A stretch of 64,000 bases of DNA from Microthyrium microscopicum (Eukaryota): contig MU004230.1 in NCBI GenBank assembly GCA_010405405.1, forward strand, positions 2,948,627 to 3,012,626, in the 5' to 3' direction. The position numbers and the translations under genes are program-made. The notes under the pieces are model-generated. The model did not search any database and was not told the DNA's origin. It saw nothing but the letters and a program-made list of their open reading frames with translations. The stretch's first letter is position 1, and every line of letters starts with the position of its first letter. Of the stretch, positions 787-42,614 are shown piece by piece.

Positions 787-3700
787 CTAAAACACCCAGG
801 TAAAGGAGCTTTCCAGCTGAAATGATGTGGAGCACCTGGAAACAGTAAGTAACATACACGGAAGAGGAGAAAGAGAACTAACCTAATATCAACAGACGAT
901 GCACCGATTAATATGTCAAACGATCCCTCTTCTGCAATCCACGCAGATATCGCAGTATCATAATACCCAAGCGCATGCTTATCAAGCACCATCTTGATGA
1001 CTGTCGTCTCGCCGGGTTGTAAAAACACCTTTGCAAAGGCCTTCAACTCCTTCTGCGGACGCACCAACTTGGCTTCGACATCACGAACATATAGCTGCAC
1101 TGTCTCATTGCCAGCCACATCTCCCGTGTTCGTCACTGGCACTGACACTGCCATCTTCTCGTCCGCTGCAATGCGCCCTTCGACAGTGGGCTGGCCATAA
1201 TCAAAGGTCGTATACGACAGTCCATGTCCAAAGGCAAACAGCGGCTCAATCGCTCGAGCCTCATAGTGCCGATAACCAATAAACACGCCCTCCTCATAAA
1301 CAACCTCCAAGTTCTCGCCCGGCCAATTCGCATAGCTCGGCGTATCTTCCAGCCTCTTTGGAAAAGTCGTTGGCAGCTTGCCGCCCGGATTATGTCGTCC
1401 AAACAGCACATCAGCAAGCGCATTACCCGCCTCCTGCCCCTGATACCACGCTTGTAGTATAGCAGGCGCCTGCTCAACCCACGGCATCGCCACAGGCGTA
1501 CCAGACTGATTGACAATCACGCAGTTTGGATTCGCAGCCAGCACGGCGGAGATGAGACGGTCTTGGCTGCCATGTTTGGGCAGGTCGAGAGTTTGGCGAT
1601 CATATCCCTCTGATTCCCACTCTGCGTCAAGACCGACGACGATGATGGCAACGTCTGCGGCGGATGCAATGTCTACGGCTTCTTGTAGGAGGTTTACGCC
1701 AGACTCTTCCTGGTATCCGATGCGGCAGCCGCCGTATTTGTGGGAAAGGGGGCCGGTGGATTGTTTGGACAGGGGACGGACTTCGTTGGTGCTTTCAACG
1801 AGGAGGTCGACGGTGGTGTTGGCTTCGAGATGGATGGATTTGTGGACGTCTTGGGAGGCTTCGAACATGGCTTCGCCTTCCTCGGTCCAGTCCCAGTTGT
1901 CGATAAATAGCTTGCCGCCCACGTAGAAGCGGCCGGGTCCGACAGAGTTGAAGCTGAATGTGTGGTCGCCGGATGATTGGGGAGTGATGGTTGTCTTGAC
2001 TCGGAAAGAGTATGCGGGCAGAACGGGTTTTGGCGCAGAGTCCCAGAGGAACAAGTCTGTTGTCTCTTTGTGCTGGATAGCAAATGGTTCGCCCTCAAAT
2101 TGATCCCCCTTGTAGTACTCCAATATTACACCTTGCTTGCCATCTGAAGTCTGGCAGTGCTCGGAGGCAAGAGGGAGCCATTTCGTGGAATCGCATCCTT
2201 GAGCGAAAGTCACCTCCGCGTCTGTAGCTGCCCGTATACCCTCGAAGGGCGTGACAGTGTACAGCGGGTTCAAAGTCGCACTTCCACCACCCGTGACAAC
2301 ATCCCGCTTGGCATTAGGTCCTATCACCGCAATCTTCTTGACATTCCTGATAGGAAGAAGGTTATTTTGATTCTTGAGCAAGGTCAACCCCTCAGCACCG
2401 GCTCTGCGGATCAACTGAGCCGTCTCGGGATTGTCCAGGGAACGTTCCGGGGGTTCAGGAGGGCCCTGAAGTCCTTTGGTCCGCTCCACCAGCTGGAGAA
2501 CACGAGCAGCGGATCGCTCTACGTCTGCTCGGGACAGCTCGCCTTGAGATATTGCCTTCATGGCACGGACGCCTCTCCATTTTGCGGGTCCCGGCATTTC
2601 CAGATCGCATCCAGCCTTGATGGACTCGGCAACAGAGTTGGTCCCTGTCCAGTCTGATATGACTAACCTGTACTGGTGTCAGCTGGCGAAAAAGAGTATA
2701 AATAGGGCGCTAGATAGGTACCCGTCGTATTTCCACTCCCCACGCAGAATGTCCCTTAGAAGCCAGTCATTCATGTCTGAATGTACGCCATTCACGAGGT
2801 TGTAAGATGACATGACCGCCCATGGCGAGGACTCTCGGATAGCAATCTCGAACGGCTTCAGATATATCTCTCTTAGAGGCCGTTCTTCGATGATGGAGTT
2901 GATGGTCATCCGATGAGTCTCCTGCTCATTGCCGACAAAATGCTTGATTGTGGCGGATACATTCTTGCTCTGTAGGCCGCGGATGTAAGCGGCAGCCAAC
3001 TTTCCGGTAAGCAGAGGATCTTCCGAGAAAGATTCAAAGTTCCGACCACCTAGTGGAGAGCGGTGCATACAGACTGTTGGAGCCAAGAGCACATTGGCAC
3101 CTCGAGCAAGTGTTTCCTCGCCGAGCAACTTGCCCAGCTGCTCAACCAGCTCGGTATTCCATGTAGCAGCGAGAGAGATACCGCAAGGGAACAGTGCGGC
3201 CTAGAGAAAATGAAACCTGTTAGCTGATGTCTGGACTTTACCGTAAAAGGAAAGCCAAGGGTGCATTTTCCAGTAGTATGGTAGTAATACATGCCACTGG
3301 TAGTGAGCTCATGTAGACAAGAATGCTGTACATACCCTAGTGCCGTTCTTAAAGTACTCGCCCCTGGCACCACTCGGCCCGTCCGTTGTCTTAATTGAAG
3401 GTATACCATGCTCTGGCAAGGGTACACTGCGCCAAAAGTCGGCCCCTGCTAGAAGCGAAACCTACAAGCAATCCACGTGGTTAGCTTTTCTCCCCGTAAG
3501 ATTTTGATAATACAAGGTTTTAATGCCCCGTTCCCGTCTTAGCATGCTTCAGCCTTATCAAGCTCAATGGGTATCCGGCTAGATATCGGTCCACGGTTCA
3601 ACTATCGCAGCCGAGCTGTACTAGTCGTGATCCCATGGAAGTCGACGCGTATCGGCCGTCATTTTGAGTTCAGTTCCACTGTATATGTGATATTTCCAGA

Positions 3701-4101
3701 ATGAGGCCAAGAGATCAACGAAATAGCCGAGCCTTGCATTTAAGCTTTATCAGTCATGCGGACAGCTGGAATTAGAGGTAGGAGTTGATATATCGAGAGC
3801 CGGGGATGCGCCAGGAACCATCTCCAATGAGCGAATGAAGTATTTCTGTTGAAGCTTGGGGGTCTTCTACCTAGCTCAAATGAAATTGCCGGGGAGCGGG
3901 CCGTCCTGGAGTTTCCAAGGGTCGCCAGAAGAGAAGACATTTTCCCCACAGGATCTGGATCAGGGCTCGGGAATTGTTACTGACCTGTTCCTCTAGTGTA
4001 AGCTTAGAGACTAGCTCTCGGACTTCTTGAGAGATATTCATCGTATCTCCAGCACCTGGAGAGCTTGTTAGTACTTGAATGGTACCCGGAGGTTTCGCCA
4101 T
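787..4101 (-). CDS. GH3 beta-glucosidase with PA14-type insert and FnIII C-terminus; no obvious signal peptide; about 5 exons
   Basis: Motifs LTLEEQ/VSLLAGADFW, TTDGPSGARG, GGRNFESFSEDP, IKHFVGNEQE, VISDW, ESEGYDR, FAFGHGLSYTTF. Introns ~3462-3983, ~3201-3335, ~2667-2720, ~838-883. Start may instead be the ATG at 4041. Confidence 0.92.
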
Positions 4102-5941: not shown

Positions 5942-8900
5942 TTACCAGTCGTCTTCTCGCTTCCGCGAGCTCATGGCAGCCTGGCGTGCTCGAAGTGCCT
6001 CTGCAAGGCTCCCCGCCATGCTGTCGTGACTCGCATCACTACTACTCGCGGCCGAGCCGGAATATCCGCTGTCTCGTGCTGCAGGGGCGGGAGCCGGCTT
6101 CTTACCAACAGGACGCTTTGCGGGCGGTGCTGGAGGAGTGGGCTTGCCCCGGGTACCTGTGCCATTCGCGGCTACAGCGCCAGGAGGACCAGGCACGGGT
6201 CTTGACGCTGGAGGTGGCGGAGGCGGGGCTTGAATTTGTATTTCTTCTACATATGCAGAAGGGACCCAGCCTTGAACCGAAGGGTCATCAGCGACGCTCC
6301 CCTTTGGTCGTGCAAGCCACCAACCTGTAAGAATGTTAGTATTATGATTACCCGAATCTAGATTGACTCGCAATGAAGCTTAGGCACACTTACCATTGGC
6401 TTCCTTTCGAACAATGATAATAACGTCACCCTTGGTGACGGTCATTTCCCCAGCGCTCTGGCCGGCAAAATCGTACAAGGCCCGAGCAGTTGGATCTTGG
6501 CTTGGTGGAGGTGCGGCAGGTGGGGGTGGGGGAGGTCCTCGCATGGAAGATGTTGATGCCGTGCGATCATGGGAAGGTCCATTGATCGCTGCTAGGGATT
6601 GAGGCACTGCCCTCGTCTGTCCCACTGGGTTAGAAGCCACAGGACGAGATTGCGCAGGACGTGATGCGAGCTTGGAGGTCGCCCCTCCAGGACCACCAGG
6701 CCGTAACAGCTTCCCTTTTGTGATTGCCTTGGCTGGAACCTGCTTTCCTCGTGGAGTTGGTTTGGATGTTGAATTAGGAGGCTCGCCCTGGCCGGTATGA
6801 ATAGTCCCGCTCTTGTAAAGGTCATCTCGCGGTACGTTGGGATCCTTGACCGTTTTGACAGCCGAAGGTTTACCGGGTTTTTTGTTGTATTCAATCCTAT
6901 AAGAGTTAAAATTAGGCCTGTCATATTGATGATCCGAATGGCTAGAGCACTTACGTGGCACCTATTCTTAGTTCAATTGATCCGCGGGAAGTGTTTTGAA
7001 GATGAGTAAAGAACTCGGTCTTGAACACACAGTTCAGAAGTGGGTCGGCTTCTTGCTGTGCACCAACGCCTATGGAAAACCAATCGTCCTTCAATGTTGA
7101 GCAGCTGACGTATTTAATAGCGCCGAGACCGATGACTCGATCAGCTTGAATCTGCACCTGTCTTTGAACTGCAACCTGCTTGACAATGTAGACATTGCGT
7201 GGAGTCAATATTAGCATTCGAGGTTCGGGTTTACTCGATCGTCCAAGTTTGGATACGAGTAATTCTGCTCGGCATGAAAAAATGACGGGCTCATTGCTTT
7301 GAAGATTGACGGCCGAGCGAACCATTTCACCCGGACCACCCGAATTGGCGATACCAAGATAATCTCCCAAGAATCTTCGATAGCCTAAAAGACTGAAGCG
7401 ACGACGCTCTTTCCGACCCTTGAGGACTTGATGACCTTGATCTCGTAGTTGAATAAACTCGAATCCACCATTTATACGTCTCCAAAATCTTTGTATCCGG
7501 ATTGCACACTCTGTTCGGTAGCGGATATAATTCCGCCAAGCTCTCTGAATTCGAATAGCCATATTGTGCCAGTACCTGTCCCGCATAGTTTCCAAAGCGA
7601 ACAGAGTTTCAGGTGTTTTGATGAAAGCCTTTGTCCGGCCCATTTGATATTCTTCAATGGGAATGCTGGTATCTTTCAAGATTTGCTTGGTTCCAGAAAG
7701 GTAGTCACCCGTCCAGGTGTAATCACCGGCGTATGATGTTTTGGGTGACAGAAGATAAAATCTTTCCACAAATTTTTCGAAGGTTTGACGATATGCAAAT
7801 CCAGCTCGCCGTATACGAACGTTTTCTTGCAATCCAAGATATTTGATTTGGTGGAGGACGTTACCTTCGTTATACTCGGATGGAGACTTGTTTTCGTTCG
7901 GTTTGATTGTTCGAATGTATGACGGTGACGCTTTCATCAGAGTGGAAACCAAGTCGTTAGCGGAAGCCTTGATCTTGTCTCCTGCCGTGGGAGGTCGTCG
8001 CTTGTTGTCCTGATCAACTGGGGCGGGGAATAATGTATGCAGGAATTTGTTGCTGCTTTGACCAATAAGGTTCAACAAGTCTTTCAATAGTTGGTCCTTG
8101 TTCTTGTCAGTCATGCCTTCTACTGCGTAAGCGACGTCTCCAGCGTAATGCTTGATGATGAATTGGCCCTGTCGGGGCTGGAAATTGGCATTCGCAGCTA
8201 AGGTGTTAAGTCTTTGGACAAAAGTTTGATCTGCAGCAGCTGGGTCTGCGTGTGCAGTTGCGCAGGCATCATTGAGGACGGCAAACACGCCTGCAGGACG
8301 TCTTTCTTCGATGAGTTCGCACACCACCTTGTTGTCAAAGTACTTGATCGGTGTCCATTGGATCTGTTCTCTTTCGTATTCCTCTTGTTCGGCTTTAAGA
8401 GTCAGTTGAATGAAGATTTGCTGAAGCTTTTCGTTGACATAGTTGATACACAGCTGCTCGAAGCTGTTCTTTTCGAAAATTTCGAATCCGTAGATATCCA
8501 AGATTCCAACCGATTGAGCCATGGCTCCTCGGGCTTTCAATGAGACGTTTACACGTTGAACAATCCAATCAAAGAGGTTAAAGTATATACCCTTGGCTAA
8601 TGCATCTCGAACAGATGTTGCTTGGGCTGGATTCAGAGGAACATTGTACACCGAGCCACGGCGTCCTCCACGGCTTGTTTCCACAATTCTCTCGGTGAGC
8701 GCTTTGTCGACATGATCAGCTTGAACTTCCATGAGATATGCTACGAAATCTACGACCGAGCGGTCTATGATTTTCGCATTTCCTTCTTCGTTTTCACCAA
8801 ATTGGACATTCCCCAACCAAAGTATAGCAGCCAACATGCGGAAAATGTTGTCCTGTTCAGCCTGAGCAAGTCCAATAATCTTCATGGCATTGACAGTCTC

Positions 8901-24832: not shown

Positions 24833-27562
24833 GATGAAGAAGCTGGTGAGAATCGTAGTGAGTAGAAAGAGCGCCTTGTTATTCTTATTATATATTGTTA
24901 TTCTGATATCTGCTATCTTCAACCTTGCTTCTAAGGTCTTGGTTATTAAAATCTAAATATGTACCCATGAAGATCTCCACGGAAGAGTCGTTAGACATAT
25001 TGAATCCTTCAGCACATAGTACAGTGCCAATATGTCGCAACAAACAACACAAGAAGAGGATTCCAATGATTCCGAGATATGAATCTTGAACAAAGCTCAG
25101 TTGACCTATTGACGAACAGGCGGCAAAGCAATCCTTTTCTCTAGAACGTGTCGTATGGACGGTAGATATACCTGGTAGGCAATTTAAGAATTGAAATGAA
25201 GAAAATGCTGGCATTACTGGCCAAGATAGTTTCCTTCATTAGCATTCAACTTGCAGCAGAAACTTCGATTTTTGACTCTCAAGAGAGTTTCCATACAACT
25301 CTTCCCAGAGATACCTTTAGCGTGTCCGCCATAGCCAGATTCACGAGTTGAGACGCAATTGGGTACCTATCTTTTGAGCTTTGATGCAGAAAGCAGTGGC
25401 CGAACTTCCTAATCTAGCTAGAAGTTCATATGTTGAAAGAAACCATCGACCAATCGATGAATTGCACGGCTCTAACATCTCGCCAGCTCTCTGTTCAGAC
25501 CTGAACGTATTTAGAAATTACTGTGGGGCGTCAAGCTTGCCAAAATTAGGCAGGAACCGTACCCTAGGTCTAGGAACCGTTGTTTTGACCGGCGCAATGG
25601 TCGCTGCGATGTCTTGGATGTGTATAGACGGAATGCTTTGATGCTGTTGGATGCCGATATATATTAGACCAGACAAGGATTGCCCATCCACTGCTTGCGA
25701 CCGCCATTATGCGAATGACCAAGTATTTGTCTAGGACAGCTCTCCCACCGTCAGGCGAAGTGGCTGGTCGCTCATCATTACGTAGTGGTAAGATATGTGC
25801 TTGTTGTGCTTGTAGCTTGAGGCTCTGGTATCGAGATGACAAAATGCCATATCTGTTTCTTGCATACCAAGCTAGTCTCCCTTCCTTAACAAGGTACCTT
25901 GATAGCCCTCTGTTGATATTAACCATCCAGCTCTCAATAGAGTTGGTAAAATGATATCACATAACGTTTTTAGAGATCTTCTATAATATCAATTTCTAGT
26001 GTAGGGATAACATTCCTGACGCTCGAAGAAGCATTTCAAAGTTGAATATGGTTCCTGAATCAGTGCCAAAGGTGTAGTACAATTATATCATGTTATTAGG
26101 CGCACTGTGCACATATTCTCTGACTACAGTTGGTGTTACCAGAAGATATTCCCCTGAGCGGCCGAGCCTCATCATTTTGCGTCTAACTCAGGATTGATCA
26201 AGTAACAATGGCGTCGATCTTCGACGTAAACATCCTGTATAGCCCGTATTTGTCTCCTTGAGTGGTCACATCCAGTATGTGTGCCCTGAAAAATAGCTAC
26301 AGTCTTCAATATCTTCATCAAGTGTGACTGGATACCAGTCAGTTGGTTTTAGCTAACTATACCGATCCATATCGAGGTCCCGAAATATCAAGAATTCGTA
26401 GAACGAGGACAACTCCTTCGGTTTTGAAGACTGCGATTGATCGCGAATTAAGTAATTCATACTAAGTGCTAAGTTCATGATGTATAAGGTGTTTACGCTA
26501 TAAAGAAGGATTCTTAAATACTATGCTAAGGCATAGGTTGGGTAACCTATTAGGGTTAACCTAATATATATAGATTCTTAGCATTAGGTTAGGTTTTAAA
26601 AATATTTTATAAAACCTATACCTAACCTAAGCAAAATAAAATTATTATAGGTTAAACCTAAGGAACCTAAAGGACCTAAATTAGAAACTTATTAAGTAAG
26701 ATTTATTTAGTACGTAACCTATTTAGGTTATAAAAGAAGAGTTACTATATCTAATATAATTAGTAAAAGCTAAGTAGATAGAAATAATCTAGTATATAAA
26801 TTAGAGAGTTAGAAAAGTATTAATTAAAATATTTAGTATAGTATATAGATTAAACTATATATTAACTAGCTATTACTACTAAAATCCTAATAACTAGTTT
26901 AAACCTTCTTCTTCTTACTAACCTTACTAAAGACTATACCTATTAGTAGTTACTTTTACTTATTCTCTAATTCCTACTAAAAAGTAGACTTAAATATTAG
27001 TTTATAAACTCTTCTACTAGTAGCTATTATAAGTAAAAGCCTATTAATATCTTTTAGTAATTATCTATAAAAAGAGTCTTAAGTATTACTATTCTCTATC
27101 TTATTACTATTCTTATTACTATCTAAATCTATACTATAGAATCTAGAAGAGGTCTTTAAGCTTATAGATTTACTAGTACTAATACCCTTAAGGTTTTCTT
27201 TCTCTTTAGTAAATCTAAAACTAGTATTATTTTTATTATTAAAACTATCTTTACTAGCCTTATCTACGTCCTTATCTAAAATATTATTATCCTTACTTAA
27301 ATTATTTAAATTATCTTCCTTATTAGAAATAATAAGCAACTTATCTAAATCTTTATAATAAGTTATATAATTAAATATCTAATAGTATATAATATTAGGA
27401 TTACTAAAATAAATATAATTAAGTAGAGTATTTATAAGTTATTTTATAATTATATTAATATATTTTTTATATATACTAATCTCTACTTTAATCTTATTAG
27501 AACTACCTTAATAGTCTAAAATATTAGCTATTAATTTAGTAAACTTATTATTATTATATTAG

Positions 27563-27636
27563 NNNNNNNNNNNNNNNNNNNNNNNNNNNNNNNNNNNNNN
27601 NNNNNNNNNNNNNNNNNNNNNNNNNNNNNNNNNNNN
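27563..27636. other. Assembly gap (N run)
   Basis: Run of n characters. Confidence 1.
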
Positions 27637-28199
27637 NTAAATTATAAATAATATAATAATAAAGATATACTACTTTTAAAGTATTATATAAACTTATTAG
27701 ATAAAGATAAGCTAGTTAAGCTATTATCTATTATAATATTATTATTATCTATAATTAGTTCTATATTATTAGATTAAGTATTTAAATTACTATACTTCTT
27801 AAGCTAAACTTTATAAAAGTCTTTAATTATTATGTTATACTAAGATAAACTATTTAAACTAGGATAGTCCTTTTACTAAGGATTAGTAAAGGTAAACTTA
27901 GCTATATAAGGAGATAATAACTAACTAAAAGTATAAATACGCTATAATTAGATATTAATTTATATTAGGTTAAAGTATACTTATAGTTTTCCTTAAGCCT
28001 CTTTTAAACTAGACTAAAGTTTACTCTACTAATATAATTAAGTACTTACTAGTATATATTTACCTAGAATAGCCTCCTTATTATTAATATATTAAAAGAG
28101 CTTTTAGAAGTATAAAAGAACTTTATAGATAAATAAAGCCTTAGATCTACTAAGAATCTAGGTTATAGCGTTAAATAGAGTAGTAAGCTAAACTAGATA

Positions 28200-31100
28200 C
28201 CGTAAGAAAATAGTAAGTTAAGTAATGTAAAGGCTACTTAAGCCCTACAATTTTAGGTAGCGTTATAAGGGGCGTCAAAAATATAGGGCTAGTAAAATAG
28301 GTAGTATCTATTTTTAACGCCCCTTTGGTGTCTAGATATTATTACTAAGTAAGCTATTTTGTCGTTTTTAAAGCTAATCTAAACTAATTCAAGTAGGATG
28401 TTATTATTTTAATAGTAGGGGTAGATTTTGCAATTAGGCTAAAGCTATAGAAGAACATTTATATATAGATTTTGTAGTAGAATTCTATATCGTTCTTTAT
28501 ACTAATTAATATTCTTAAAATCTAATTCTTTTAACTCTAAACTAATTAAATACTAGGAATTTAACTATTACTATGCTAAAGGCGCTAAAGAAAGTATACT
28601 AAAATTATTAGCCTTTTGCTAAATTAGATTTAAATGTTGTAGGTTTAACCTTTAGTTAATCCTCTAGGGCTAAATTACATGCTAGGAAGCATAAATTACT
28701 TTTATTAAGGAAATAGTATACTAAATAGGCTAAAATGAAGTCCTAGAATTGTTCTTCTATAGAACGCTAACTAGAGGTAGTAGGGTAGATAATATAATAA
28801 TATATTCTACTTAAGAGGGGTGAATAGCAATATAAACTACCTAAAGGTATAAAGTAGAGTAAATGTCCTAATGCTTATTGCTAGTAGCGTCCTGCTAGAT
28901 GTAGTAATGCTATGGAATTCTTTAAGGAATCTTATTTAATAGTATTAAGATAGTAGACTTAGCGAGTAGCTTTATAGATTACTAAGAATTAATTCTATTA
29001 TATTATTAACTCTCTAAAGTGCTCTAAAGACTATTCTAGACTTAAAGATATAATCTATATCTAGTATTACGAGCAAAGAGAAGAGAAGAAGTCTATTAGT
29101 ACTTATTAATTGCTTTAGTATATAAATAACGTATAGCAATATATTTATACTACTAAGATTGCTTATAGTAAGCTTCTAAAAGACTAAAAATTAACAAAAG
29201 GCTAGCTTTAAAGATTCCTATTCTGTTAGAGGATTAGTTAAAGGAAGGCTACTTGTCTTACTTAATAGTTACTAAAATTATAAGTAGATATATGCTAGGA
29301 CTTTATTACTTATATAAGGCTTACTACCTATAGAGCTATTAGACCTACTAGTAGTAAAAGAAAGAATATTAATACTATCTCTAACTAGGATTTAGAAGTA
29401 ATAATATAGCCCTATTAAATAGTTAATATAGATAAGATACTAATACTTTTTTGTAACTTTAATAGTTATACTTTAGCAAATATAGGCTCTAAGACTATTG
29501 CTATTTATACTTATAAAGATAAAGATAAGAAGCGTTAGATAATAATAGTTCTAGCTATTACTATTAACGGCATCCTTTAAATTCTACTGCTAATTATCTT
29601 CTATAGAACTAAGAATAAGAAGAAGGGTCGTATTAATAAGAAGGAGGGCCTATACTACTATAATAGCGTTTATATAAAGTATAATAAGATAGCGTAGAAT
29701 AATAATAAGTTAATATAGTAGTAGTTAAAGGAAGTATATTTAAAAGGAATAGATAGAGCCCTAGAAGGGTATTCTAGAGGTCCTAGTAGTCCTAATAGCT
29801 CTAAAGATATTCTATAGCCTTCTATCTTAGGTAATTCTTCTCTTATACCTTTTTAAAATAAAAATATTTTAGTACTAACTATAGGATCTAGAGCTTAATT
29901 TAATAATATCTCTACTAAATTCTAGCCCTACTATAATATCTTTAATATCTTGCACCTCTTTAATATCTATAACATCTATAATATCTACTTCTAACTCTTC
30001 TATTCTTATTATAGACGCTTTCTCTGTTTATAAAATAGACTTTATTAAGCAAATCTATAAAGATAATAATATTATTATTATTATTATTTCTCTTAGTTAT
30101 ATATCTAAAATCTAACTACTTAATATTAGTATGAATAAGCCTTTTAAATAAATAGTTAAGGAATTATAAGATATATAGGTCCCTATATTCTACTAATAGG
30201 ATTACTTTAAAGACTTCCCTAATATAAAATCTATAGAACCTTTAGAATAGACAACATCTTAATGCTGCATGTTTATAATATATATTATAGGATAAGTATA
30301 GAATTAAATACATACTTATAATACTAAAGTTATTAGGCGCTCCTTTACTACTACGGGATTAAATAACTAGTTAAATACTATCGTTACGGAGGAGAAGTAT
30401 AACATTAGTATTAAAGATTTACTAGTACTACTAGACCTTTCAAACTAGCGTTTAGTAAAGCTAGAATTTGTTAAAGCTACTGCTGCTAAAGAGGATAATA
30501 AGCAAGAGAAGGATAATAATCCTATAGTACACGTATCTAACGTTAGTAACGATAATAGCATAGAATATTATAATAAAGATAAGATTACAACATCTAATAT
30601 TAATACTAAAGATACTAAAAATACTATAAATATTAAAGTTATTTAAGATATTAAAGATACTAAAGACACTACTATAGATATTAAGTTAAACAAAGATAAA
30701 GATAATAGATTTATAACGTCCTTTATAGCGATAATAAATGCTCTACTGTAAAATTTACTTATACTTATTTTGCTAGAAATATCTCTATCGTTTATTATGC
30801 CTTAGCCTATTCTTCCTATTCTTCTAATTATATAATCTCTTTACCTTTAGAATTAGTATCTAATACTGCTATCTAATACCCCCTCCTAAATTAAATCCTA
30901 TAGCGGACTTAAAGAGTTAAATCCTATTTATTTTGTATAGCAGAATACTTATAGGTTACTAGAATAGACACTTAAAGACTAGTATTAATAGCTTCCTAAA
31001 TGGGTCTATAATCCTACTCTAGAACCTACCTAAAATATTAAGATAGTATATCTAATAGTAATATTCTATTAGTAATAGGACTCGTAATATTAGTTGTTTA

Positions 31101-31453
31101 GCGTTAAATTAGGTAGTATTCTTGACTTATAGTAAATCTAGTAGAGTTAGGAAAATTATTAGTAACGACTAGGTAATATTAGTATTAAAAAGAGCGCTTT
31201 AATTTATATACTTATATACAATTCTATACTATCTAGTTCTTAATATCTTGAGCTTTAAATATATCTATTTTAGTGTTAGAATTCCTTATTTAAAAGGATA
31301 TAAAGTTAAATAGGATTATAGGGTTCGTAGTTATAAAAATAGATTAGTAGTAATTTACTACTAGGAGCATTTCTATAGAAACTACGCTAAAAACGCCTTT
31401 AAATGCCCTCTCCCTTTATAACTTATATTGCTTAACTTACTATTTTCTTATAG
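28200..31453 (+). mobile_element. pogo-like Tc1/mariner DNA transposon (RIPed), nested in the hAT transposase
   Basis: TA TSD on both sides. ~31-bp TIR CCGTAAGAAAATAGTAAGTTAAGTAATGTAA / TTATATTGCTTAACTTACTATTTTCTTATAG. De-RIPed DDE motifs NMDETP (29425-29442) and QPLDVSVNKPFK (30113-30148). Confidence 0.88.
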
Positions 31454-34400
31454 TACTTAATATTAGCCTATTCTATATTAAATGGTGTAAGAATTCTTAC
31501 CTATTGCTAATCCTTCTTTTTTCTAGCTTTATAAGCTTTAGTAATAAGGAAGTATATAAGGAGTATCTTAATAATTTAAAGGCAAAGTTCTATTATTATT
31601 ATTAAGTCCTAACGTATTTTAATATCTTAGATTAGCTAAAGGTTACTACAAGGATTAAGATTATTCTAATATTTATTAATAGAGTATAGATTAGACATTT
31701 AGGATTTATTAGAATAAAAACTAGCTAAGTTAGTAAAGAACCTAAGAAGATATAGTTTAAAGGAGCTAATATACTTAGTAATACTACGAGCCTAGACTAT
31801 ATTAGCTATTTTAATTAATACTTTTTTAACTTACTAAAAATAAGAACTAACTTATTTTATATAAAGTAAAAGTAACTAAGCTATATTTTATAATAAGTTT
31901 CCTCTTCTTTAAAATATCTTCTTTAATAAATACTTATTTAATTTCTTTATCTATAGATTTATAGCTAAAATAGGAAAGTAAAGCGCCTTATACTAGTTAA
32001 ATAATATAAGATATATAAAGAACTTAAATAATACTTATAGTATACTTAAAGTATTAATATATATTTAATACTTAGGTACTATTATCTTATTATTACTAGT
32101 ATTATTAACTATAATAAAGTAAACCTTCTTAGTAATACTATATTAATTAAATATATTACTTATAAGTTTAGCATAAGCCTTACTTATAGACTTTCTAATA
32201 GTAGAAAGAAAGCTAAGAAGCCTCTCCTTTTATTCCTACTATAAAGTAATTTATTATCTAATAATAGCTAAGTACTCTTTATAAGTAAAATTTAAAGACT
32301 ACCTATTTAGCTAAATACTAATATATATATTATTACTTAGCTAAATAAACTTTTCTTTTAACTTTATAAGATTAATTATAACTTATTTTATAACTTCTAA
32401 AGTAATAATTTTCTATAAAGTAAATTAAGGTTAAATACTTAGTAGTATATAGTAGTTAATAACTTACTATATAAATTATAATTTAAATATACTAAGAAGA
32501 AGACCCTTAGCTATAATTAAACGTGCCTATAAAGTAAGAAAATCTTATAGTATAATCTTATATCTATTAAAGCTATAAGTAGCCTTAAGCTTTATATTAT
32601 ATATTTATAAATATTATAATTAGTAATAGTATAGTATAATAGGAATTAAATATACTAAAGTTATAGTTAATCTTATTTAATTAAGTATAATCTAATCTTT
32701 ATTACCTTTAGCTATAATAATATTATTATAATCTTAAGAAGTAATATACTTATTAAGTAATCCTTACCTAATAAGGAAAGTACTAGTATTATCTTTATAA
32801 AGGTAATAGTATTTAAGAAACTTATAATAATAAATATAGTAATAATAAGGCTAGCTAGTAGACTTAAAAGCGCTTACTTATATATTATCCTAAATAAGGC
32901 TTTTTTTCTTACTATACTAATAAGAATCTATTTATATAAGAATTAGCCTTTCTTAGTTAGTAGTAAACTAAAATATAATTTATTACTAAGTCTAAAAATA
33001 GTTATTAGTATTCTTACTCTATAAATACGCTTTTTTTCCTTAATTACTAAATTCCTTTAATACCTTAAGTATTATACTAGAAATAAAAGAAGTAAGTACT
33101 AGTAAATTAGAAGGTAATATGCTAATAAGAAAGTTTAAAATAGTACTATTAGTAATAGTACTTCTATCTTAGATAGTAAGTTATAATAATAAGAAAGAAG
33201 TTATTAAGCTAGCTCTAAATATAAAGGAATTAAAGGTAGAAGCAAAGGAAAATATAATTTAGGATAGCGTTAACTTTATTAAAAAAACCTAGAGTTCTAA
33301 AGGAATAAAATTAATAAGTTAAAAAAGTATTAATTAGAAATCTAATACTATTTATATTATTTTATAATATTATTTATAGAAACTTCTATTTATTCTTCCT
33401 CTTCTTTTAATATTAATTAATTATACTCTATATTCTAATTATCTACTTTCTAATTACGCTAATTTAACTAATCTAGTAATTTAGGAAGTAACTAATATAA
33501 CGCGTTTCTTCTCCTAATTTCTTATATTACTATACTATTAAACTCTTTCTTAATTTATTATATTTTTTAGCTCTTCTTAGAACTACTTAGCTTAGTCTTC
33601 TTTCTCTAAAAGTAATTTTATAAACTAAAGATTTATAAAGTTATTCCTTTATATAATCTATACTTAGTCTAATTATTACTAGTAGTTAGCTATTTTATTT
33701 TTCTTAATTAGTATATCTACTAAAAAGTAATACTAATTCTACTTAAGTAGTTATAATACGCTATATAAAATATACTAAATCTAAAAATTATTTCTATAAT
33801 TAACTTTATTATACTACTTAATATAATATTTAAACCTTAAAGTAAAAATATCCTAATAGTCTATTAATTTCTATACTTAATTTAAAAAGATAATATACTA
33901 ATTAATCTCTATTATATTTTCTTTATTATAGTAATAAAAAATACTATCTAAATTAACCTACTTATATTTTTATATCTAAATAATAATTAAATAGTAGAGA
34001 ATATTTTAGTCTAAAAATAATTATAAAGCTAGAAATAGGTAACTAAGGTACTCCTTACTTTAATTATCTTTAGTTATAAAGATTATACTACTAGAAAAAA
34101 TTATAACTATTATTAATAGCTATTTAAGAAGTATTACTACTAAAGTACTTACTAAAAAATAATAATTAGCTACTTATAGATTATATAGTACTTTTATATA
34201 GAAAGTTTTAGAACTATAGTCTTAAAGAGTAAATAAATATAGATATTAATAATAGAAAGCATATATAGTATTATTATTATTATAATAATTTAAGTTTATA
34301 TTATTTATACTAACTAAAAATATTTATAATAAATTCTTTAAAGTTTATTATATAAAAGTATATAATTATAGTAATAAGAGTTTACTTAATATAGTAAAAT

Positions 34401-35099
34401 AACTTCTACTATAATTTATTTCTAAGATTTACTACTTAGAAAAGTAGTAAAATAAATATAAATATTACTAAAAATTTAGTAAAAAAAAGAAAATAAAAAA
34501 ATAATAATAAGTAAAATCTAAAGTAAAGAATAGAGTTAGTATTATAACTTAAATAAACTTATAAAAATTAGAAGGTTATATAGACTTAAAGAGTTTAGAG
34601 TTATAGTCTTAGAGTATAGTTATATTTAGTAATAATATATAAATAATTTATTATAAAAAGTTAAAAATAATAAAACTTATTAAGACTAGCGTCTTATAAT
34701 TAAGATATATTAAACTTTATACTAGTATTAAGCTACTATTAAGGCTAAGTTTTAAAGAGTTATAAAAATATTAATTAGAATTTAGAAAGTTTATTATAGC
34801 TTTTACTTTCTAAAATATTTATTTATTATAGTATTCTTTTCTTATTAGTTTAAACTAAGTTCTACTAAGTTAAAAGTTAATATTCTAAATATTCTTATTT
34901 ACTATAAGTTATAAATTATTCTATAGCTTACCTTATTAAGTTATTTACTCCTTTTAATTAGTTACTATATAATCTACGCTTTATTAATCTTTATTATATT
35001 ATTTTAGCTTACTTTATTATTTTAACGTAACTATATTCTTCTTAACTTTATTTACTTACTTCTTAGAATTTCTTTCTTAATCTTAAATTTTTTATATTT

Positions 35100-35400
35100 A
35101 CTATACATACTTTTATTCTTTTTTTCTAATCTATTTATAATCTTATACTCTTCTTTATATACTATACTCTTTTTTATCCTTTTCTTTTAATCTACTTATA
35201 ACTTTATACTTCTCTTTACTTACTATACTCTACTTTATTTTTTTCTTTTAACTTACTTATAATCTTATACTTCTTTTTATTTACTATACTCTACTTTATT
35301 ACTCTCTTTATATCTACTTATAACTTTACTTTCTTATTTTCTTTTTATTTATCTCTTCTTTATTAATAAAAGTAAGCTATAAAACTCTTACTATCTATCT
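35100..35400. repeat. Degenerate ~61-bp tandem repeat (about 4-5 units) inside the hAT element
   Basis: actatactc...tttaa..tacttataa..ttatact recurs with a one-base shift per 60-nt line. Confidence 0.7.
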
Positions 35401-35526
35401 TATAACTTTTTATTCTTATTCTTTATATATTTCTAGTATTATTAAATAAGTATTATTATTTAAGTTATTTTTTTTACTAATATTCCTTATAAATAATAAT
35501 ATTAGTAGTAAAGAAAAAAATATATA

Positions 35527-37481
35527 TATATATAAATCTCTTTATTATTTAATATATATAACGTACTCCTTAGGGTGCTTCTATAGGTAGTACTAATGGG
35601 CCTAAGCAGACGATACCTCTAAATATAGTAAATAAACCCTCTAGGGAAGAAACTACTATAGTGCACCTAGGAGGGGCTTTACTAGCCTTATAGAGTCTTT
35701 TTACCTCTTATAAATGCTTATAGTTTAATCTATAGATTAGAACTATCTTATTATATATTTATTCTCTTTAATTCTCTTCCTCTACTTATTTATTAATATA
35801 TCTATAACCTCTTTATCTATTTCTTTAACTTTAGGAATAATCCTTAGGCTAGTAATAGTAGCCTACAAAGCTACTAGTACTAATATAGTAATACTTCCTC
35901 TAGAGACTACTAAAGGCGTTAATGCTAAAGTGCTTCGTATAAAGCTTATAAAGTTAAGAGGCTATTATCCTAATGCCTTTACTATAAAAGCTAGGGCTAT
36001 TAGCCTTTTAGTACCTTTTATAGGTAAGGCTACCTAGGTAGTAGTAGAGGGTTATTTACCCTTTAGTAGTAATAGTAGTAGTAGTAGTATACTAAGTATA
36101 GAAAACTATACGTCTTTACTATAATTCTATAAAGCTAATATATATTTAAATAGAGAGGCTTAGAGAGCCTCTACTACTATAGTATTATTCTTATACTTAC
36201 TATAAGATTTATCCTAATAGTTATACCCCTTTTTAAAGCAGTTAGAGCATTATTTCTTCCTTTTTTAAGTATAATCCTATGTATTATAGCCCTTTATATA
36301 ATAGCTATATTATAGCTATTCACTATAGATAGATTAGGTATAACCTTAGTACTTATAGTAATAATACTATACATATACTAGTATAGTATCCTATAGCTTA
36401 TAGCTATACTATACGTTCTTAATAGTTAGTCCTTAGGCTATAGTAATCTCTTATAAAGCCTCTATAGGTAGATAGACGATAAGGAATAATCTCTTTTTTC
36501 TTAAGATTATTATCTTATTGCTATAAATCTAGCTTACGTAGGAAATAGCTAGTATATATCTATTAGCCTTATATAGGCTCTTAATAAAGCCTAAATTATA
36601 TTTATCTACTTCCTTATTATAACTAATCTTATTGCTAATATGTTTTATAAGAATAGTAGCTATTTTAATAAGATAGTCTTACTAGAGTACTTACGCGCCT
36701 TATATAGTATAGCCTATAGCTTAGGTGTAATCCTTTGCCTTAGCGTCTCTAAAAATAAGTCTTAGATCGCTACTTTATAAGGGTTTAACGCCTAATATAC
36801 TTATAAATATCTTTTTAAGTTCCTTAAGGACCTCTAAGGAGGTTTTAGTATATTTATCTTTATCTAGTTATAAGATAATTAATTATCCTTTTAGTTTACT
36901 TATAAGTAGTTTATTATAGAAGGCAACGTGTACCTAATTCTATATATTTAGGGCTAGCATAGTAGGTTTATACTATACTATAGCCTTAATCTTATCTAGC
37001 CTTTTTATAATTATATTTAGATTAGTAGAAGGATTAAGGAGAGGATATTTATTAGCTATAGGCTTTTTAGTAAGCTTATACTTATAGATATAGTCCTATA
37101 GCGTAGCTAGTCGCTTTAGTATAAGCATAAGCTTCTATTTAAGAATAACTATTTCTAATCTAATTTGTTGCCCTTATTAGAATTCTAAGGCTATCTAGCC
37201 TATAGTAATAACTATATAGAGTTCTTTTAACGTCTTAAAGGAGACTAAGCTACTATTATAACTCTTAAAGTTAGAGTCTCTCTCTTCTATTTAGTAATTT
37301 AGTAGTAAAGTTTCTACTATTTAGGCTCTTTTGCTATAATAGCGTAGCGCCTACGTGTATCTAGCTAAATTTTAGATATATTTATACTGTAGAGCGTTCA
37401 AAGAGATTCTAATAATTTAATTAAATTAAACTACTAGTTTAGTGTAAAAGTAGCCATGTATTAAGCTAAAGAAGGTCTCTA
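35527..37481 (-). mobile_element. Non-LTR (Tad1/I-like) retroelement carrying only a RIPed ORF1/gag
   Basis: Flanked by direct repeat AAAAAAATATATA (35514-35526 and 37482-37494). ATG at 37457. De-RIPed triple Zn knuckle QCY.C...GHTQSIC / CG.C..GH....C / CSNCFKKGH...DKSC at ~36200-36385. (TA)n 3' tail. Confidence 0.7.
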
Positions 37482-40139
37482 AAAAAAATATATAATTAAT
37501 AAACTACTAATATTCTATATTCTAAAGAAATATTTATTTACATTATATTAGAAGTTTTTTAAGCTACTAAGTTAACTTTACTAATACTAACCTATTATTA
37601 ATACTATATTTAAGTTATAATAAAAGTTTCGTTATATCTATAAAATAATTCTTCTTAGGCTTAATTATTACTTACTACTAATATTATTTATATATACTCT
37701 TTTTCTTAAATAACTAGGAGCTTAAATTTAGACTAAGCTATTTATACTAATACGTTCTTAGAGTAATCTCTTAGTAAATAAATATTTAAGATATAAGAGA
37801 AGAATCTATAAGATAAAAAGATAGCTTAAGAAGTTATAGAAGAAATTATTATATTTCTATCTTATTAGTCTAACTATATAAAAGAAACTTATAGTAATAA
37901 GTTAAAGACTTATAGCTAATAAGAGTAGTATAAATTTATAATATAGCTTATAAATTAAAGGTCTTAGCTTTTAAAATAGAACTAGTATCTTTAATTAAAG
38001 CTAATAATAAATAATTAGAAAATATAACTATTTATATTAAAGCCTAACTACTTATTATATTAGGATTATAAAGTTAAAAATAGTAAGTTAGATTTATATA
38101 AGTTAGAATAAATAGTTTTATTTTAGTATTTTAATACTTTAAATAGTACTATATCTATAATCTTATTTTCTAATTAATATTTAATTATACTTTATTAAGA
38201 AAATATTATTTTCTAAAACTTTAACTAGAGCTAATATTAATTAATAAGTATTTTTATTTTATCTAAATTAAGTATTAGTTATAATAAATTAACTTATATT
38301 TATTAAAGGAACTAGAAAGAATTTTACGCTTAAAGCTAAATATAAGTAAATCTTTATTACTAATTTCTTAAACTTTACTAGTATCTTTTATATTAACTTC
38401 TAAGCTTTTTTCTAAAGCTTTAAGGTAAATAAACTATTAATCTTTTAAACTTCTTAATCTTCTATTTTTTAAATTGCCTTATTAAATAGTATTTTTTCTT
38501 AAAAGTTAAGGTATTAAGTTATTAAATTTATAATTACTCCTTACTCTATTTTAGTAAAAATAAGACTAATACTAGGAGAGTAACTACTATATTTATAATA
38601 AGTTTAGAAATTTATTAGTATTAATTTTAGTATTAGTTTTATTATATTTTATAATTACTTTATAGAATAATTTTAGAAGTTTCTTCTAAGTATAAGTTAA
38701 TAGCTAATATCTATAGTTAAAGTCTACTAATTCTTAATTCTTTTCTTAATTCTTTATAGTACGTAATTTAGTAAAGTCTAGAAAGTGTTTCTTATATAGT
38801 ATTAGTTAAATTTATATATACTAAGTATAAAAAACTTATATTAAGAGTTTTTATAAGAATAAGAATCTAAAGATAGTAATAGTCCTTAATAAAGCTAGTT
38901 TCCTTATTAGCTAAATCTTTAATAGCATAATTAATAAAGAAAACGTTATAAATAGCTTTTTACTATCTATAGATAAAGTTAACTTAAGAGAAGAATAAAA
39001 TTTATAAATTATACTCTTAGTAACTATACTTATAAAAGAGTTAATAAAATTTTAAATTAAAGGTAATTTAAGAAGCCTCCTTAGAAATAATATAGCTAAT
39101 AGTAATATTATAATTATAAGTAATATCTTTATTAGTATTAATATATATATTATACTACTTAGACTTCTTATATTTTATTTTTATTAATTCTTAATAGTAA
39201 GCTAATAAAGTAATAGTAGTAAAATATAGTCTAGTTTAATAAGTAGTATACTTAGGTTTCTAGCTAAGTAATTCTATAAATTTGCTAGTATTAATACTAA
39301 AAGAAATTAATAAAAAAAATCTAATAGTAAAAAAATATATACTACTTTTATTTAAAGAGTTTTATATAAGTAATAAGAATAGTAATATATTAGTTTTTAA
39401 AAGCTTCTTAGTATTCTATAGTCTTACGCTTTTTATTATTTTTATAATTAATATAAGTATTATTATTCTTCTTAAGGTAATTATATTCTATAGTATAGCT
39501 ATTAAGATTAGTATAATAAGCATAATTCTTAATTATATAAGGATTTTAAAATAATTAATTTATAAGCTTCTTAGTACCTATATTAAGAGAATAAAGTTTT
39601 AAAGAGTTAAATAAGTATTAATTAGGCTAAGAAACTAAAACTAAGACTAATAAAGAAAATATAAGAATTATTATTACTAATTAAAAGAAAGTATATAAAA
39701 GAAATTAAAGTATATAAGTAATATAAAGTAGTATATATATATAGTCTCTTAGGTAATACTCTTTAGAATATATTAATTTTAGTACTAGATTATAATACTT
39801 TTATTATTTTAGGTTAGCTCTATTATTACTTATTCTTCTTTACTACTTTACTCTTTTTAATTAGTTAAGCTTTTAAAGTTTTAAATTATACTAGTTTAAT
39901 ACTTTAAATATTTTCTCTCTATAAAGGAATATTAAGAAATAGTTTTTAATAAGTAATAAGCTTACCTCTTATGTCTTTAAAAAATTTATCTATTTCTTTT
40001 TCTTTAATTCTTTCTACTTTTTTAAGATTTTTAAGTCTTTCTTACCCTTACTATTTAGACCTTTACTACTTTAAAGAGCTTTATTACTACTATAGTATAC
40101 CTAAATAATCTTAATTCTCTTCTCTCTATACTTCTTTAG

Positions 40140-40450
40140 ACTCTAATAAACTTTATAATACTCTAAACCTTTTTATATAACCTTTATAAACTACTCTAGC
40201 CTAGTAATAATTTTTATAGCCTTTAAACTTCTTTATAAATCTTTTATAAACTACTTTAACTTAATAGTAACTTTTATAGCTTTTAAACCTCTTTATACTA
40301 CTTTTATAAATTACTTTAACCTAGCTATAATTTTTATAAACTTCTATATATTAATAGTAACCTTAATAAACTACTTTATATTAATAACTAACTTCTTAAT
40401 ACTAATAAAACCTAGCTATAACTTATAGAAACTATTATAAAAAAGCTTTA
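40140..40450. repeat. Degenerate 30/60-bp tandem repeat inside the hAT element
   Basis: ttttataaactact.taac units recur in register on consecutive 60-nt lines. Confidence 0.7.
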
Positions 40451-42614
40451 ACTTATAAAAACTATTATAACTAGTAAAATACTTATTATTATATATTTTA
40501 ATATACTAAACCTAGTAATAAGTTTTATATACTCTATTTTTTTTATAAATATTAACTATAATACTAGTAAAAGCTTTATATAAAATTTACTAAATTTAGA
40601 AAGCTTATAATCTTTTAATTCTTAAAATACTATTTATAAAATTAGTTTATAAAATTTATATTACGTTCTAAGAAACTTCTAGTAATAGTAGTAGTTTAAT
40701 AAATTTAGATATATATTAGTAAAGTAATATAATTTAATATCTATAAGAATTAGTAAAAGCTTATCTTATTATATACTTTAAAAATAAGTTATACCTCTAT
40801 TTTCTAGATTATAAGTTATTAATTTTTATAAACGCTAACCTTTATATAATTTATATAAAGAGAATAATAATTTAATAAAAGGATATAAACTTAGTAAAAG
40901 CTTTATATACTAGCTAAGTTATAAACTATTAAATAAGTATTTAAAATTAACTAGTAACTTTATTATAGAGAGGTAATTAGAACTAGTAAACTTTAAAAAA
41001 TAGAAAAGAAATTATAGTTATATAATTATTTATAAATAATAGAACTAATAAACTAATTCTAAATCTTAATTAATACTTTTATAACTTATTAAAAAAGTAG
41101 TAGTAAAATATAATTATTAAATACTATACTAAACTTTTTAAGTTAACCTAAATTATATAGCGTTAGTCTTTTATTTAGGTTATCTATTAATAAATACGAC
41201 CTATAAGCTAAACCTATAGAAACCTAATCTATTTAGGTTAGGTTATAATATTTCTAAAACCTAACCTACGTAGGTTATAAAAATATTTAGAGAAACCCAT
41301 ACCTAACCTAACCTAACCCATGCCCTAGCATATCAAATACGAGTGTTGGCCGAAGATCCATTGGCTATTATCATACATCAATACAACACATATTGGAGGT
41401 GACACAGGATTTCAAGTCTAGGATTTACGACAAGGGCAAAAAATGATATCATCTTACTCGTTGATGTACTACTATGGTGTGACAAAACGAGACCTAACGA
41501 CTGAAATTACCTTGCTAGTCAAGTACTTGACAGTTAGTTTTGTCTATCTCGGGTTTCGTAGCCATTCTCTAGCTAGTAAGTAGGACTTTGAGACTATATC
41601 AACATTTGGTCACTTCAAGAGCGTCAGTTATCATGCCCACATGAGACGGGAGTGCTCATTCCTGGCTTCATCAAGGTATTCATGACTTGCAACTACCAAA
41701 ATCTTGCTCGATCATGGAAGTGAGTGGTCTATTGGAACTGTCATCTGATTCCGTGTCGGAAATTGCAGATTCTCTTTGAAATTGCTGGTTGGGTAGCATT
41801 CACACTCGCCGCAGCCAAGCACAGACAAACTGGTACATCACTTTAGTTTGCCTTTGTTTTCTTGTTGAAGGTCAAACTAGAAACCCATGGCTACTTGGCC
41901 TGAATAAGGCATGTGGCTCCCATGTACTATTCATCTATCGTCGCTCATATTGTGTGAGACCCACTTTCTCCAGGAACTCCTCGCTCGTCTAGCGGAGCTA
42001 TGGTTGGCACATGTTGGGTGAAGGACTTCATATCCTGGAGTAGCAGGTTTGTAGTTCAATCAGATGTCAGCGATCCTCGGCATTACACTATTTTGGCGTG
42101 ATTACTCGCATAGATGTTGGTGACATCCGAAAGTATTGGCTTAACTTTTGTGCCTCAACATCCCCACAAACCACCGCACTAGGTTACTTGAAAATCTCTA
42201 ATGAGTGGATTCGACGATTCCCGCATTGTGTAAGAGAATTCCTGGAACAAGAGGATATTGTTGCTCCTCTTGTCTCTTTGGAGGATGGGTGTTGTGACCC
42301 TTGTAGAATATCAATCCCCAGTTAATTTATATCCCAGCGCTTTGGCCAGACCAGGCAGGTGTTCATCGACTGGGGACCTGGCTCTTTCGCAATGTAGCAG
42401 GGTTACGACTCGATCAAGACTGTTGACAGACGAGAAGAGATGAGCAATTATGGCAAATCCATTCATGACATCTGATTCTGATTGCACAGAGGCAATAGTT
42501 ATAAAGCGTTGCTGTCTGTCGGTTTGAGATTATTTCTATCATCACACCAAATTCTCCAGGAAATCCAACCACTTTTCAGCCTTATCTAATATATCACCTG
42601 TCTTTATCCTCAAA

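Follow-up and report, generated by a model that had tools for sequence, protein, structure and literature searches.

A RIP-killed hAT element with a histone H3-like gene between its terminal repeats in Microthyrium microscopicum

Structure of the element and its nested insertions

Positions refer to the window, i.e., the whole stretch of 64,000 nucleotides that was analysed. The window contained an AT-rich block (GC 0.15–0.29, TA/AT 1.4–2.0; GC outside 0.40–0.59) flanked by an 8-bp TSD, TTAAATAC at left (26514..26521) and TCAAATAC at right (41333..41340). Within these lay a pair of 22-nt TIRs, at 26522..26543 on the plus strand and at 41311..41332 on the minus strand, which were identical at 19 positions and differed by transitions at the other three. 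The left TIR was followed by GGGTT-type subterminal repeats and was also found, in a less mutated form, in 475-bp MITEs. The initial annotation had taken these ends to bound the entire 14.8-kb block; this was borne out by 13 two-ended copies of the family, each with its own TSD. A landing inside a long host ORF was rejected, as no ORF spanned the joined flanks.

The two nested insertions that had been proposed within the block proved to be real, both being missing from other family copies. Insertion 1 (28200..31453) was a TIR element with a TA duplication, representing a separate repeat family; judged from its ends, it is probably of Tc1/mariner type. Insertion 2 (~35527..37482, minus strand, boundaries approximate) was non-LTR-like, with a (TA)n end and a gag-like ORF in which zinc-knuckle-like motifs were read by eye. 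Pfam searches of X-read-through frames of both insertions produced no match in 12 of 12 frames. An assembly gap of 75 N (27563..27637) stood in place of roughly 235 bp of transposase gene sequence, positions 1042–1276 of the element as seen in the other copies, and a misjoin was therefore ruled out.

The hAT catalytic motifs already noticed in the left half belonged to a RIP-killed transposase gene on the minus strand (26971..33219, ends approximate), approximately 3.2 kb long once insertion 1 was subtracted. Its support comprised motifs in X-read-through frames, a coding signal, and a RIP-aware match to the C-terminal regions of other hATs in this genome (4 of 6 controls, z = 4.8–7.7). When read against the hAT catalytic pattern, the gene displayed a DDE core, CxxH and a C-terminal dimerisation domain, of which the second D and CxxH were only RIP-compatible. 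A frame switch with splice-like ends suggests a probable 50-nt intron (31796..31845, minus strand), which contained one copy of a recurrent word of ~20 nt. Pfam found no hAT family in the X-read transposase of any of eight copies, a PDB profile search was blank, and the RIPed transposase drew no match in a word-based search of proteins. Blanks in these searches are uninformative about the interior.

Copy number and RIP history of the family

Fourteen collinear copies were aligned over a core of 9,897 bp. Both ends were present in 13 of these, each with its own 8-bp TSD (exact pairs in 7, transitions only in 6), and an 8-bp TSD was also present at the one MITE checked. The element had moved as a unit by cut-and-paste, with its own TSD at 13 sites. 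The nine uninterrupted copies measured 9,562–9,899 bp, a range explained by copy-number changes in a 61-bp minisatellite (35060..35330). Comparison with other copies had been put forward as a test of the 'extra' interior, and all nine uninterrupted copies possessed it; copies lacking the region, internal nested elements and a gap misjoin, the three outcomes that would have counted against a single element, were not found.

Divergence over 91 copy pairs was 8.7% for transitions and 0.12% for transversions. Surviving CpA sites were confined to one copy in 83 of 127 cases, and the residual correlation between copies was -0.087, against -0.083 expected. From these patterns, RIP struck each copy independently, after an amplification burst. 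No copy among the 14 was intact and every gene model was therefore read through RIP. Lone un-mutated TIRs at two loci (C6 and C8) had no intact element attached, and a TIR pattern search of metagenome contigs gave no matches. For the empty site, the sequencing runs comprised X2 and X4, probably of the source sample itself, and a second sample (X5, X6) that provided low-depth identical pieces only.

Gene content of the interior

RIP-aware alignment identified a RIP-killed histone H3-like (H3L) gene of ~133 codons at 40418..40915 on the plus strand, between the TIRs and on the opposite strand to the transposase, with two introns (40518–40567 and 40784–40831). Host H3 scored 103.6 against this region, compared with 37.4 ± 3.4 in 40 shuffles (z = 19), while H2A, H2B, H4 and NF-YC controls gave z ≤ 2.2; of 73 aligned columns, 36 were identical and 17 RIP-compatible. 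H3L was present in all 13 copies covering the region (scores 138–161), each with 10–13 stops in 132 codons, and a second H3L was not found in the element (scores ≤ 38.6). With an independent tool, a profile of 12 X-read copies had 21 matches among 1.84 billion proteins; all 13 that were fetched were H3-type or contained H3 domains, and where intron 2 lies, 12 of the 13 had additional residues. The protein P0011 matched the Pyrenophora tritici-repentis consensus by eye, and aligned ungapped across the 48-nt intron 2. A PF00125 search of the genome itself recovered 12 matches, all host histone-fold genes and none a RIPed H3L. The gene had escaped Pfam and word-based searches, and came to light when RIP-mutated copies were pooled and their codons scored against proteins with RIP allowed for in the model.

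A metagenome scan with the H3L alignment kept 80 of 582 loci, mostly canonical H3; five were inspected and two (L083 and L089) were informative. In L083, a hAT N-terminus was arranged head-to-head with two H3Ls that looked intact; this N-terminus gave no match. Both H3L intron sites were found in L083, L089 and P. tritici-repentis (by eye in the last, and intron 1 by eye in all; intron 2 of P. tritici-repentis is 48 nt, as it is here), and neither was present in host H3 or CenH3. An intron also occupied the intron-2 site in L086, an H3 of canonical appearance, and this site is therefore not diagnostic by itself. A strict intron regex missed the known introns. The introns common to the present, P. 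tritici-repentis and two metagenomic genes suggest that H3L is old and vertically inherited.

These observations bear on whether H3L is a passenger, captured once by transduplication and of no benefit to the element, which is the published reading for both P. tritici-repentis and P. fijiensis in the available text of those papers (PMC3538342, PMC6710886). H3L sequences were highly variable, and H3L was not found at any of 17 other hAT loci of the genome (within the 10 kb fetched at each, scores ≤ 48), showing that hATs spread here without it. However, a full-length frame, start, two spliceable introns and the histone fold were retained in distant elements, where decay would be expected of a neutral passenger, and the introns differed from those of host genes, indicating that capture was neither recent nor local. 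Passenger status was judged somewhat unlikely.

Within codons 1–30 of H3L, origin from a lysine codon was impossible at every position under C>T/G>A change; L083 and L089 retained tail lysines, so the lysine-free tail is not family-wide. The tail was divergent, loop 1 was eleven residues longer than in H3, F84 was excluded with W allowed, Q68 was excluded, and A stood at 107. Positions 68 (Q) and 107 (T) are further CenH3-telling positions. Divergence of the tail, loop 1 and F84W are features of CenH3 in the available text of PMC3156773, and the present H3L shares a divergent tail, a long loop 1 and a W-compatible position 84. It could thus be a CenH3 mimic, steering the element to centromeric chromatin or interfering there, but this is very improbable. 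Unlike CenH3, H3L was multi-copy and transposon-borne, its introns differed from those of host CenH3, and insertion sites displayed no bias to AT-rich DNA, an indirect indication as regards centromeric location; right flanks beyond 300 bp had genic GC (0.39–0.56) in 12 of 13 copies, with several copies far apart on a single contig. Furthermore, other H3Ls displayed these residue states in no fixed combination (position 84, F or W; position 68, Q, K, S or A), and the P. tritici-repentis H3L belongs to neither H3 nor CenH3 according to the available text of Manning et al. (PMC3538342).

On the minus strand at 39361..39581, an exon resembled the central ORF of H3L-hAT elements through an ungapped match of 61 codons to the ORF facing H3L in L089. 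In 2000 shuffles the score of 52.4 was never reached; among 1500 decoy ORFs, 7 (0.5%) reached it, and in an unrestricted search 1 of 100 shuffles equalled the match. The exon sits where the published layout places the central ORF, head-to-head with H3L. The next exon of L089 gave no match, and a word-based protein search with the L089 exon was blank; ESM Atlas returned clusters without names (best 0.85), which serve as a lead only. A central ORF is likely to lie between the transposase and H3L, on the transposase strand. Its downstream exons may occupy 38150–39360, within 37495..39360 (minus strand), where there was a weak coding signal, and 60-bp tandem repeats (40158..40346, minus strand) could represent an upstream exon.

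Of the ~6-kb interior, H3L occupied 0.5 kb, the minisatellite 0.4 kb, the right end ~0.4 kb, and the central ORF region up to ~2.2 kb, of which 0.2 kb was matched, leaving ~2.6 kb without gene assignment. The segment at 33300..35059 was common to all copies and was not found outside the family, and had no coding signal by a weak test: interior values, at 5–7, were not above the 95th percentile of non-ORF DNA (6.9), and the same test missed the H3L exons. Fixed-stop and first coding-signal scans gave no usable information. This ~2.6 kb, with part of the supposed central ORF, might instead be another gene, or a transposon that nested there long ago, and have become fixed in the founder before the family amplified. 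The coding test could miss short exons; a RIP-blind inverted match between element positions 3846–3886 and 6103–6143 brackets 2.3 kb; and the ~20-nt word, found elsewhere at introns or gene borders, recurs at 33325 and 34766. Yet the inverted match was at chance level (one per shuffled control, in both of two) and had no convincing TIR or TSD, a second H3L was lacking, and no copy outside the family was seen among 32 candidates scored (other matches ≤ 350 bp, at 67–78%). The last result led to rejection of the interior as a separate repeat family, and an old nested insert or additional gene is unlikely. The unassigned DNA is probably regulatory or expanded non-coding sequence.

Relation to published H3-carrying hATs and proposed role

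The comparisons that follow apply to the available text of each paper. Manning et al. (2013) described a 5.6-kb element in P. tritici-repentis with transposase, central ORF and H3L (PMC3538342). As here, its central ORF lies upstream on the transposase strand and its H3L is divergent and near the other end; the TIR start agrees with the present TIR at 15 of 23 positions by eye. In contrast to the RIP-saturated 9.9-kb family described here, that element is nearly unmutated and transcribed, and its H3L retains F84 and tail lysines. A 2.3-kb chimeric form occurs there; no counterpart was seen here, where there are 475-bp MITEs instead.

Dhillon et al. (2019) reported H3-hATs in Pseudocercospora fijiensis and five other Mycosphaerellaceae (PMC6710886). 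These resemble the present family in length (9.5–9.9 kb), ~20-bp TIRs, 8-bp TSDs, death by RIP, an H3-like gene and a mostly unannotated interior. They differ in TIR sequence, in number (471 elements against 14) and in having one or two H3 copies rather than one. Their H3 was interpreted as an intronless retrocopy, whereas two introns interrupt the present H3L, at positions other than those of the host H3 introns; judged by length, the '16-aa insertion' described there may be the equivalent of intron 2. In the analysis by the same authors, the P. tritici-repentis element showed no similarity to those of Mycosphaerellaceae, and the two were interpreted as independent captures (PMC6710886). ToxhAT, a 14-kb hAT bearing ToxA (PMC9594970), is by its description likewise a fungal hAT of large size in which additional genes lie inside the TIRs; no effector gene was recognised in the present element.

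In size, termini and gene content the present family fits these published H3-carrying hATs, a kind already described (PMC6710886, PMC3538342). The 'cargo-carrying giant hAT' of the initial annotation was right in that the element is an oversized hAT with further genes, but it is not a novel type. Similarly, the extra interior, first explained as cargo or a second ORF, does belong to the element and contains H3L, probably with a central ORF; these genes have the look of resident accessory genes of this hAT lineage rather than of captured host cargo. Overall, the island is most probably a dead copy of a ~9.9-kb H3L-type hAT. As old accessory genes, H3L and the central ORF would have been handed down together with the transposase in hATs of Dothideomycete type, rather than captured afresh from the host. 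This family amplified in a short burst before RIP saturated it copy by copy, and the present copy later received its two insertions.

The match of both introns to P. tritici-repentis and two metagenomic H3Ls, and the exclusion of lysine from codons 1–30, are new here, and point to H3L being an ancient transposon-owned histone variant. No paper making the argument from shared introns was found in open-access full text. H3L may act as a replacement histone on the element's own chromatin, with help from the central ORF, so evading silencing marks on tail lysines; this role is proposed tentatively, as plausible but short of probable. A broader and more doubtful proposal is that H3L-hATs are one ancient lineage in which the H3 variant and its central ORF partner form an anti-silencing module, with the ~20-nt word, repeated at introns and gene borders, as a possible cis signal directing the module to the element. 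If true, a single gene, handed down with its introns, would underlie both the 'independent captures' and the 'retrocopy' of the literature. In this family the tail would have lost every lysine as far as the histone fold and, with no equivalent of K4, K9, K27 or K36, its nucleosomes would refuse H3K9 and H3K27 methylation. The sharing of H3L introns would revise the published view of repeated captures, and makes it testable why a transposon keeps its own histone.

Amplification of the element as a single unit

The AT-rich block at 26522–41332 (GC 0.15–0.29, against 0.40–0.59 in the surrounding DNA) had a dinucleotide pattern of the RIP type and was flanked by the target site duplications (TSDs) TTAAATAC and TCAAATAC; its 22-nt terminal inverted repeats (TIRs) were identical at 19 positions and differed by transitions at three. 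Queries from the left end, the middle and the right part all recovered one and the same group of loci in the assembly (37.1 Mb, 58 contigs), at ~89–94% identity. The resulting alignment of 14 copies, window copy included, was collinear except for a 61-bp minisatellite, assembly gaps and 1–2-bp indels, with a core of 9,897 bp. All 13 two-ended copies had their own 8-bp TSD (seven exact, six with transitions only), while copy C14 comprised the left 4.8 kb only. This upheld the initial annotation, which had proposed one oversized hAT; the genome-wide collection of copies that it suggested showed the interior to be common to the uninterrupted copies (9/14, 9,562–9,899 bp). Both nested insertions it had identified were private to the window copy. 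One, 3,254 bp long and belonging to a separate repeat family, had TIRs and a TA duplication; the other (~35527–37482, ~1.96 kb) was non-LTR-like, with a gag-like ORF, zinc-knuckle-like motifs, a (TA)n end and no visible reverse transcriptase, and its nearest matches were 12 other loci at 67–72% identity, with no close copy. The possibility that the N gap was a misjoin was rejected, as its 75 N corresponded to about 235 real bases of other copies.

Across 91 copy pairs, mean divergence was 8.7% for transitions and 0.12% for transversions. At 127 CpA-context sites the C was kept in some copy, in 83 of them by a single copy, and residual correlation between copies was absent (median -0.087, expected -0.083). 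Given these private survivors, the lack of correlation and the transition-dominated divergence, the 9.9-kb unit was probably amplified in a short burst, after which RIP would have saturated each copy separately; cut-and-paste spread as one unit, followed by RIP, is regarded as demonstrated. In 12 of 13 copies the right flank was of genic GC.

Less mutated family TIRs were retained in three ~475-bp MITEs (G000:C3:2289251-2289705, C5:2614078-2614552, C11:585929-586403), on a ~70-bp mini-element (C8:~1457060-1457129) and singly at C6:1314359. A heavily mutated ~0.7-kb relic (L018/L048, G000:C17:454000-454560) resembled both family ends. Sequencing runs X5 and X6, from a sample labelled as another organism, contained low-depth pieces identical to the unique flanks, which suggests carry-over rather than a relative.

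Genes of the interior

Because standard searches of the RIP-mutated element returned no match, even for the transposase, copies were pooled, and a simulated RIP model was used to score their codons against proteins. The transposase ran from ~3600 to 450 of the element (minus strand), with one probable intron, and was matched by four of six other hAT C-terminal regions of this genome (z 4.8–7.7). At least four further RIP-mutated hAT families were present (L163-L179), several apparently 6–9 kb.

Near the right end, host H3 matched the plus strand (score 103.6, against 37.4 ± 3.4 for 40 shuffles), as did pieces of host CenH3 (z 9.8 and 16.8); H2A, H2B, H4 and NF-YC had no match there (z ≤ 2.2). 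The alignment with host H3 comprised 73 columns, 36 identical and 17 RIP-compatible. The modelled histone H3-like gene (H3L; 40418–40915, plus strand) had ~133 codons and introns of 50 and 48 nt, and was found in all 13 copies covering its place, with 10–13 stops in each. It was not detected within the 10 kb fetched at each of 17 other hAT loci of this genome, nor in as much of the further hAT families at L163-L179.

One exon of an ORF lying head-to-head with an H3L at the metagenome locus L089 aligned ungapped over 61 codons with 39401–39581 (minus strand). Its score was reached by 1/100 shuffles across the whole element; in the region where the published layout would place the ORF, by 0/2000 shuffles and 7/1500 decoy ORFs. 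The next L089 exon had no match in the element. With moderate confidence, this exon may be assigned to the central ORF between transposase and H3L; its remaining exons are putatively placed from a weak coding signal alone, and the same analysis failed to pick up the exons of H3L. The initial annotation's view of the interior as cargo or a second ORF stands as regards the presence of genes, but the element itself is of a published kind.

The ~2.6 kb between transposase and central-ORF exon had no gene assignment, and a second H3L was not found there. A further nested transposon is rather improbable for this stretch, which had no convincing internal termini and no copy outside the family among 32 candidates scored. 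A ~20-nt word occurred six times, at 26815(+), 31823(-), 33325(+), 34766(+), 39613(+) and 41078(-), a number reached by 0/200 shuffles; one site lay in the transposase intron and the others at gene borders or probable introns. By eye, the P. tritici-repentis consensus had a different recurrent word, of 9 nt, within its introns.

Introns and relatives of the H3L

The element is a further member of the histone-H3-carrying hATs. Manning et al. (PMC3538342) report a P. tritici-repentis hAT of 5.6 kb that contains a transposase, a central ORF and an H3L assigned to neither H3 nor CenH3. The H3-hATs reported by Dhillon et al. (PMC6710886) from P. fijiensis and relatives are RIP-killed and 9.5–9.9 kb long (20-bp TIRs, 8-bp TSDs); these authors interpret the H3 gene as a retrocopy captured independently of the P. 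tritici-repentis case. In the P. tritici-repentis consensus of the latter source, inspection by eye showed the present gene order, with both H3L introns placed as in this element. P0011, a protein matching that consensus, aligned ungapped across the 48-nt intron.

A profile of 12 X-read H3L copies matched 21 of 1.84 billion proteins (best E 6e-10). The 13 fetched were all H3-type or had H3 domains, and in 12 additional residues stood where intron 2 lies, which would be expected of an unspliced intron. Both introns were missing from host H3 and host CenH3. Taken together, the introns suggest an ancient, transposon-owned histone gene, with the caveat for the second site that a canonical-looking metagenomic H3 (L086) had an intron there also.

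Of the 80 loci retained in a metagenome scan for H3L, most were canonical H3; five were inspected, L089 among them. At L083, two intron-bearing H3Ls lay head-to-head with a hAT N-terminus. This contig was un-mutated, its tandem H3L genes (1000–1600 and 2500–3100, similar repeats before each) facing the transposase directly, with no central ORF in between.

Possible role of the H3L

H3L and central ORF would be inherited accessory genes. Since a lysine codon cannot be lost through C>T or G>A changes, and codons 1–30 were incompatible with ancestral lysine, the predicted H3L tail would have lacked equivalents of K4, K9, K27 and K36. Loop 1 was long, Q68 was absent, and position 84 excluded F and allowed W. 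Loss of Q68 is a CenH3 trait. The state of loop 1 and of position 84 is shared with CenH3 (PMC3156773), as would befit a centromere mimic; however, such traits were scattered among other H3Ls, and this role is very improbable. Tentatively favoured is a putative replacement histone shielding the element from silencing, against which it counts that related H3Ls had tail lysines; that the gene is simply a passenger is somewhat less probable. The main value of this case lies in its intron evidence, which suggests that the transposon has long owned a histone gene.
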